Virus record (IMG/VR): IMGVR_UViG_646311924_000020
Reading direction: 5' to 3' (one strand)
DNA: 43,730 bases
Source of the DNA: a virus
Taxonomy: Duplodnaviria > Heunggongvirae > Uroviricota > Caudoviricetes
This document shows positions 1,376 through 1,862 of the stretch, in pieces. Under the pieces are notes generated by a model that worked only from the letters and a program-made list of their open reading frames with translations, had not been told where the DNA came from and did not search any database. How positions within the stretch are numbered: position 1 is the stretch's first letter; each line of letters opens with the position of its first letter. A program made the translations under genes and the position numbers.

Positions 1376-1423
1376 ATGATGAATGACGGTAAGCAACAAT
1401 CTACCTTTTTGTTTCACGATTAC
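1376..1423 (+). pseudogene. sbcB: sbcB (exonuclease I) 5' fragment: first 16 codons, then prophage DNA
   Basis: ATGATGAATGACGGTAAGCAACAATCTACCTTTTTGTTTCACGATTAC encodes MMNDGKQQSTFLFHDY, the recalled SbcB N-terminus, divergent from dacD as in K-12. After codon 16 the frame reads AQYP-stop and the DNA becomes AT-rich and phage-like. Confidence 0.75.
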
Positions 1424-1862
1424 GCGCAATACCCCTGAGAACCGCCATGAACAAGGGTTTCATGATTTGTGATTTTAGTTTGGTACGCAATTTGGTACAC
1501 AACACTATTTTCACTTCATCGGGTAGTCATCAAACTCACCATAACGAGCATCGTTAATGATGTATGTGATCACCACAAACATCACATCTGGACTAGTTCC
1601 GTTTTCATGCGCAGGTATTTGTTTACGTCTCCCTTTCTGCAAATCCTAAAGATGAGATTTTGGTGTTTTGTGATATCTTTTATCCTCAGTTCTCTATCTA
1701 TTATGCAAACCAGTAATGAACCATCACTATGTGATAGTGAGGCATCCGCTACATTAAGCGCAGAGAAATGATGCAGTGGTGGGCAGACTGGCTTGATGCT
1801 GGATTGAAATAAAACTAGAATGCATTCAAATATATACTTTATATTTTTATAAGGAGAAAGCG

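Follow-up and report, generated by a model that had tools for sequence, protein, structure and literature searches.

Prophage integration at sbcB and related systems

Gene-preserving integration is classically represented by phage 21 and e14, which insert at the 3′ end of icd, and by integration at the 3′ ends of tRNA genes. Prophages can also inactivate the gene that they enter, as do Stx phages in wrbA or yehV/mlrA, the hlb-converting staphylococcal phages, and the Listeria comK phage. For sbcB, the gene encoding exonuclease I (ExoI), descriptions of the integration site and its core go back to 2008 or earlier, and both are routine in the typing of O157 Stx2c phages; the original paper on phage 2851 is reportedly that of Strauch et al. 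from 2008. In one O157 collection, all Stx2c phages (74/74) were located at sbcB (PMC4645166), and the site was occupied in 26.9% of 346 O157 strains (PMC8309913). An Sf101-like int lies upstream of sbcB in 8 of 10 Shigella flexneri genomes, and the published attP of both Sf101 and phage 2851 is CGTAATCGTGAAA (PMC4159516). The sbcB site has been called "disrupted" or "occupied" (PMC8309913), and the literature on it covered here (including PMC4159516, PMC4645166, and PMC8309913) treats integration or disruption only and does not discuss restoration of the gene. Integration of prophages at sbcB is an ordinary and already known event.

The locus examined here lies in a viral DNA stretch of 43,730 nucleotides (IMG/VR record IMGVR_UViG_646311924_000020), referred to in its entirety as the window. 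We consider it highly probable that positions 1376–1441 are the dacD-side junction of a P22-like prophage that integrated into sbcB in the Campbell manner, with the sbcB open reading frame (ORF) rebuilt at the int side. The attachment module has the core and the target (sbcB codons 13–17) of the 2851-type module found in phages 2851, 1717, Stx2a_WGPS8, Sf101, mEp234, HK140, and HK544. Beside the core, the P′ arm of the window is that of free-phage attP over the bases compared, and identity over ~400 nt is 95% (window 1395–1798, matched to a fetched locus with coordinates fitting mEp234 locus L003). The xis DNA of the window is 100% identical to that of sister genomes, whose xis/int/attP region (in E2863, the int/attP stretch) is 98.6–99.8% identical to these seven phages. 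Compared with the 2851-type Stx phages, the module resides here on a P22-like podovirus with an acyltransferase and an O-antigen-type tailspike, as in Sf101. Unlike the 2851-type phages, this prophage has insertion sequence (IS) insertions and is probably defective.

As in gene-preserving integration, the displaced segment has a diverged, in-frame counterpart in attP, and the host ORF is complete afterwards. Unlike the icd and tRNA cases, it is the 5′ end that is replaced rather than the 3′ end, so the phage must also bring a start codon, a ribosome-binding region, and a promoter, none of which is ever needed in a 3′-end replacement. The locus resembles insertional inactivation in that the prophage lies inside a protein-coding gene. 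It differs in that the target ORF is not truncated: insertional inactivation entails a truncated ORF for which the phage supplies no replacement, whereas in relatives an ATG and 11 codons restore a full-length 474-aa ExoI ORF at the int-side junction. Judged from sequence, the integration is gene-preserving at the 5′ end and not an insertional knockout.

The dacD-side junction

The following features make up the host side of the window and the attachment region.

1 to 1173, minus strand: dacD, a host gene (ORF); 1 to 1167 is annotated as DacD in the 100%-identical E2863 sequence
1174 to 1375, plus strand: native dacD–sbcB intergenic region, near-identical to the K-12 sequence upstream of sbcB
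1376 to 1438, plus strand: orphaned 5′ stub ORF of sbcB, comprising 16 native codons, 4 phage codons, and a stop (MMNDGKQQSTFLFHDYAQYP), from the K-12 alignment
1412 to 1424, no strand: 13-bp att core TTTCACGATTACG, the crossover region, spanning sbcB codons 13–16 (F-H-D-Y) and the first base of codon 17
1425 to 1510, no strand: phage P′ arm of attP, identical at every base of a 45-nt comparison to the attP of mEp234 and HK140 (free phages)
1480 to 1488 and 1492 to 1500, within the P′ arm: candidate integrase arm-type repeats TTGGTAC(G/A)C, present nowhere else in the window

A sequence-only reading of the window had placed a prophage within the first 50 bp of an sbcB gene divergent from dacD and had proposed alignment to K-12 for defining the breakpoint. 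Both placements are borne out. In an alignment with the uninterrupted dacD–sbcB locus of K-12 MG1655, near-identity extends from dacD to base 1424 of the window, and all similarity ceases at 1425, which sets the break in sbcB after nucleotide 49 of the coding sequence, the last base common to both. The breakpoint is the 13-bp core at 1412–1424. Intact sbcB was not seen to continue past codon 16. The same reading had the gene leaving frame in an AQYP-stop sequence. From its start at 1376, divergent from dacD, the stub does read MMNDGKQQSTFLFHDY followed by AQYP and TGA (1436–1438); however, the frame is not lost, and the ORF continues into phage DNA to end at a stop four codons on.

The intergenic region at 1174–1375 presumably holds the native sbcB promoter and ribosome-binding site, now parted from the body of the gene. 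Downstream of it, only the 20-codon stub remains, which, with 16 native codons alone, does not amount to an intact ExoI gene and would represent a dead end behind the native promoter.

The attachment core and the Campbell pattern

Comparison of the core and its flanks across loci showed that TTTCACGATTACG is the sole segment common to attB, attP, and both junctions.

attB (K-12, locus L002, position 4793): native left of the core, native right
attP (mEp234, locus L003, position 3097; HK140, locus L004, position 3105): phage left, phage right
Window junction (position 1412): native left, phage right
int-side junction (E2863, locus L001, position 43754; SD134209; 05-3004): phage left, native right
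int-side junction (phage 1717; Stx2_EH1904; one GTDB E. coli): phage left, native right

With the first junction supplied by the window and the second taken from sister genomes, both junctions are exact reciprocal products of attP and attB, the Campbell pattern. The core is the reverse complement of the published attP CGTAATCGTGAAA (PMC4159516) and is also that of the attP/attB of Stx2c phage 2851, Sf101, mEp234, and HK544. GenBank records carry the same 13 bp as a "prophage attachment site (type 2851)" for mEp234 and as a "duplication due to insertion of stx2c phage" for phage 1717 and Stx2_EH1904.

The int genes of the sister genomes encode Arm-DNA-bind_3 and Phage_integrase domains, the latter tyrosine-recombinase catalytic (Pfam). 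Their P arm, which adjoins int, contains three more copies of TGGTAC(A/G)C (E2863, locus L001, 43550–43591), and the clusters of this repeat flanking the core probably serve as arm-type binding sites for the integrase. Of these copies, the three in the P arm now lie upstream of the rebuilt sbcB. A candidate core-type inverted repeat in attB, GTTTC-ACGATTAC-GAAAC, was noticed by eye only, has no counterpart in attP, and was set aside.

In the proposed mechanism, a 2851-type tyrosine integrase would have carried out site-specific recombination at attB within sbcB codons 13–17, leaving positions 1376–1441 in the order host left arm, core, and phage P′ arm. The P arm would bring an ATG and 11 codons imitating the native start and thereby yield a complete ExoI, as shown in the sister genomes and as we infer for the source genome. 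Precise excision would restore native sbcB.

Reconstitution of sbcB in related genomes

The int-side junction was read in relatives of the window. In E2863, xis (42189–42380) overlaps int (42361–43539, minus strand), as it overlaps the 3′ end of int in every relative; 181 bp of phage DNA follow, and then a phage-supplied ATG. The phage-supplied start reads ATG ACA GAC ACA GAT AAA CAA CCT ACC TTC CTC and runs into the core, so that the junction (CTC TTT CAC GAT TAC G from the phage side, continued by AA ACC TTT GG) is an in-frame fusion to sbcB codon 17. The protein accordingly begins MTDTDKQPTFLFHDY joined to ETFG. The attP of the free phages has the same 46 nt, with the ORF there ending in HDYAQYP and a stop; an in-frame imitation of how sbcB begins is thus part of the phage itself. 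Measured from the second native ATG, imitation and native start agree at 34 of 46 nucleotides (74%) and 10 of 15 residues, with T-F-L-F-H-D-Y conserved.

Since attP holds an in-frame ATG and 11 phage-specific codons before the core, the int-side junction encodes a full-length ExoI, a complete ORF of 474 aa opening with MTDTDKQPTFLFHDYETFG. The rebuilt protein aligns to K-12 SbcB at 98% identity without gaps and scores 814.7 bits against the NCBIfam exodeoxyribonuclease I equivalog (cutoff 260), covering model positions 3–473 of 477. Rebuilt residue 12, where the Pfam RNase_T domain starts, corresponds to native residue 13, encoded by the codon that opens the core; all of the phage-specific amino acid changes therefore fall upstream of the conserved exonuclease domain. 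In ExoI, a DnaQ-like DEDDh exonuclease, the core encodes F13-H14-D15-Y16, and the HDYETFG segment with its D-x-E motif is retained; the N-terminal metal ligands Asp15 and Glu17 are kept as Asp14 and Glu16. PGAP annotates an intact 1,425-nt sbcB after int in six of six lysogens (E2863, SD134209, 05-3004, and three unrelated strains). The sequence-only reading had held sbcB to be inactivated unless the far junction replaced its 5′ end. The exception that it allowed for is what relatives display, and inactivation by truncation finds no support, given the full-length ExoI encoded at the int-side junction.

Across 11 copies of the phage-supplied start, ATGACAGACACAGATAA(A/G)CAACCTACCTTCCTCTTTCACGATTACGAAACC, the sole variant is the synonymous AAA/AAG, compared with 12 variable sites in the 185 nt upstream. 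This low variation lends weak support to a translated fusion, from a sample too small for a test of selection. Among 14 loci drawn from viral contigs, 12 repeat one host junction and the other 2 are attP copies that do not differ in their coding part, too little variation for comparing synonymous with nonsynonymous change. The possibility that the imitation N-terminus was copied from the sbcB of another species was also considered: a fully degenerate DNA scan for DKQPTFLFHDYE over one genome each of 185,579 species (GTDB) revealed no native sbcB donor, and its single match was an E. coli lysogen.

Expression of the rebuilt gene

The native sbcB promoter region lies ~43 kb from the rebuilt gene, which is preceded by a 181-bp stretch of the phage P arm and points away from int. 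A rival explanation is that the ORF is rebuilt while sbcB is silenced or strongly downregulated, making the lysogen an sbcB hypomorph or null, a milder version of the inactivation raised by the sequence-only reading. This would fit the loss of the native promoter and leader to the dacD side and their replacement by unrelated phage DNA; furthermore, the divergent orientation of int means that int read-through cannot give an sbcB transcript. Scans of the 181-bp segment gave no convincing sigma-70 promoter or Shine–Dalgarno sequence. A consensus scan found no sigma-70 promoter there, and a position weight matrix (PWM) scan found nothing above shuffled background, its best candidate (TGGACA-19-TATATT, locus L001, 43601–43631) being equaled or beaten in 134 of 500 shuffles. 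These scans carry no weight for silencing, however: the consensus scan misses the native promoter as well, as does the PWM scan in 1174–1375, and the results are thus uninformative rather than negative. Silencing is also at odds with the intact sbcB ORF in all six lysogens, which include O111 strains with prophages degraded by several IS insertions. Moreover, the phage retains more than the 13-bp core: it keeps an in-frame imitation of the N-terminus, which would be difficult to account for without translation of the fusion. We therefore regard silencing as unlikely. Under gene-preserving integration, the rebuilt sbcB would be transcribed from within the 181-bp phage segment that separates int from the new start codon, and its ExoI product would still be functional.

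Extension to the source genome

The int gene falls outside the window, and the int-side junction is ~1.4 kb past its end. The expectation of the sequence-only reading that int and the rest of sbcB lie beyond the window holds in every closely related genome examined. Positions 38200–43730 are 100.000% identical to O111:H8 strain 05-3004, bar one extra IS1203 in that strain, where int directly follows xis and the rebuilt sbcB comes next. The same order (xis, int, and sbcB) occurs in O111 genomes with 100% identity to the final 2–5.5 kb of the window. At the other end, positions 1100–1800 are 100% identical in 16 complete genomes. The last 2 kb are matched in 17 complete genomes at 99.9–100% identity, and wherever the match is full length, an integrase is annotated under its end; the far side was read in three of these genomes (E2863, SD134209, and 05-3004), each with int and then intact sbcB. 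By sequence similarity, the window belongs to the E. coli O111:H8/H- STEC lineage.

Restoration of sbcB in the source genome is very likely by descent from these 100%-identical relatives. We infer it from them because the int-side junction is beyond the window and no complete E. coli genome in the collection has exactly its arrangement of two IS copies. Past position 43730, one would then find int and the P arm in the source genome, together with ATGACAGAC...TTTCACGATTACGAAACC joined to sbcB. That the far end was instead lost or rearranged here, for example by IS1203 recombination, leaving sbcB from codon 17 missing or disrupted, is suggested by the two IS copies, the varying IS content of O111 strains, and the unmatched IS arrangement, but is extremely improbable given the integrase under every full-length match, the intact sbcB in the three genomes read, and the identity to 05-3004 up to the final base.

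Prophage body and cargo

The prophage is a P22-like (Lederbergvirus-type) podovirus, with DNA similar to epsilon34, CUS-3, and P22. In E2863, genes for P22-type capsid, scaffold, portal, ejection, and needle proteins lie on segments 98–99.9% identical to the window. Extrapolated from O111 relatives, the element measures ~43.7 kb including its two IS copies.

1425 to 43730, no strand: P22-like prophage body, running ~1.4 kb past the window through int and the P arm
1511 to 1761, minus strand: decayed humD/umuD-like (S24 peptidase) pseudogene, annotated by PGAP as a frameshifted, incomplete "HumD family" gene in the identical OkiPb01689 sequence
1863 to 2929, plus strand: Acyl_transf_3 acyltransferase, O-antigen-type cargo, with PF01757 matching both halves
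2970 to 4907, minus strand: P22-type tailspike, with Head_binding (PF09008) at residues 1–113 and then a beta-helix domain
~15256 to 16572, minus strand: IS1203/IS629-type copy inside the prophage
~18439 to 19749, plus strand: IS1203/IS629-type copy inside the scaffold gene as judged by E2863, with the gene halves at ~17898–18386 and 19709–20104
43539 to 43730, plus strand: AlpA-type excisionase gene xis, the last gene of the window; the last 506 nt are 100% identical to 05-3004

The xis gene sits at the far right, where the sequence-only reading had put it; its 05-3004 counterpart is WP_000132739.1, a helix-turn-helix regulator assigned to the AlpA family in another annotation. At the opposite end, the humD/umuD-like pseudogene (similar to a pol V subunit) adjoins the P′ arm. 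Its HK140 homolog is intact at that place, and mEp234 has the same decayed version.

The acyltransferase occupies the position of oac/oacB in Sf6 and Sf101. A 1-nt deficit in the T7 run at 2014–2020 splits the gene, and insertion of one T reunites the halves in one 355-aa ORF. Other O111 strains are annotated with this split too, which could reflect a pseudogene or on/off switching by strand slippage. In the tailspike, the receptor-binding part (2992–4504) shares 93.8% DNA identity with the tail spike of the unrelated 146.6-kb phage ECGD1 (KU522583.1). This likeness suggests that a domain specific for O antigen was exchanged horizontally by a large phage and a temperate podovirus.

Because the second IS copy interrupts the scaffold gene, the prophage is predicted to be defective and probably unable to make virions. 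IS sites vary among O111 strains, with one in a gp4-family gene in E2863 and one near window position 43225 in 05-3004; these varying positions point to long residence of the prophage. The sbcB-site prophages of different O111 strains are mosaics (window 4920–12441 and 35565–41411 compared with E2863) with identical att/int/xis ends. The window and 05-3004 encode a P22-type Erf (~39102–39707) and an anti-RecBCD Abc protein (~40114–40407); the E2863 prophage instead has lambda-type Gam/Bet/Exo and different ejection-protein alleles. Genes for tRNA-Thr (TGT) and tRNA-Asn (GTT) lie at 27875–28030 on the minus strand, between the Q antiterminator and the lysis cassette.

Frequency and biological implications

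The phage-type sbcB junction was found in 581 of 5,426 complete E. coli genomes (~11%), and a left junction like that of the window was found in 496 genomes. Beyond preserving sbcB, integration may place exonuclease I under phage control, an idea that we hold to be distinctly unlikely. The upstream P arm has three arm-type repeats and follows the early-left operon through xis, and hence ExoI levels could vary with Int/Xis occupancy or with read-through upon induction. If so, phage-controlled ExoI could aid phage Erf or Red recombination, or could keep SbcB-sensing retron/DRT defenses quiet; in some strains, knockdown of sbcB is toxic through such defenses (bioRxiv 10.1101/2020.05.25.114553).

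When genomes are annotated or phenotypes predicted, a prophage "in sbcB" is no ground for calling the gene knocked out. In about 11% of complete E. coli genomes, O111 STEC and carriers of Stx2c-type phages among them, the ExoI ORF is complete, and both its N-terminus (MTDTDKQP...) and its upstream region come from the phage. If expression from this region differs from that of the native gene, then recombination and repair phenotypes, the efficiency of oligonucleotide recombineering, and SbcB-dependent defense could be affected.
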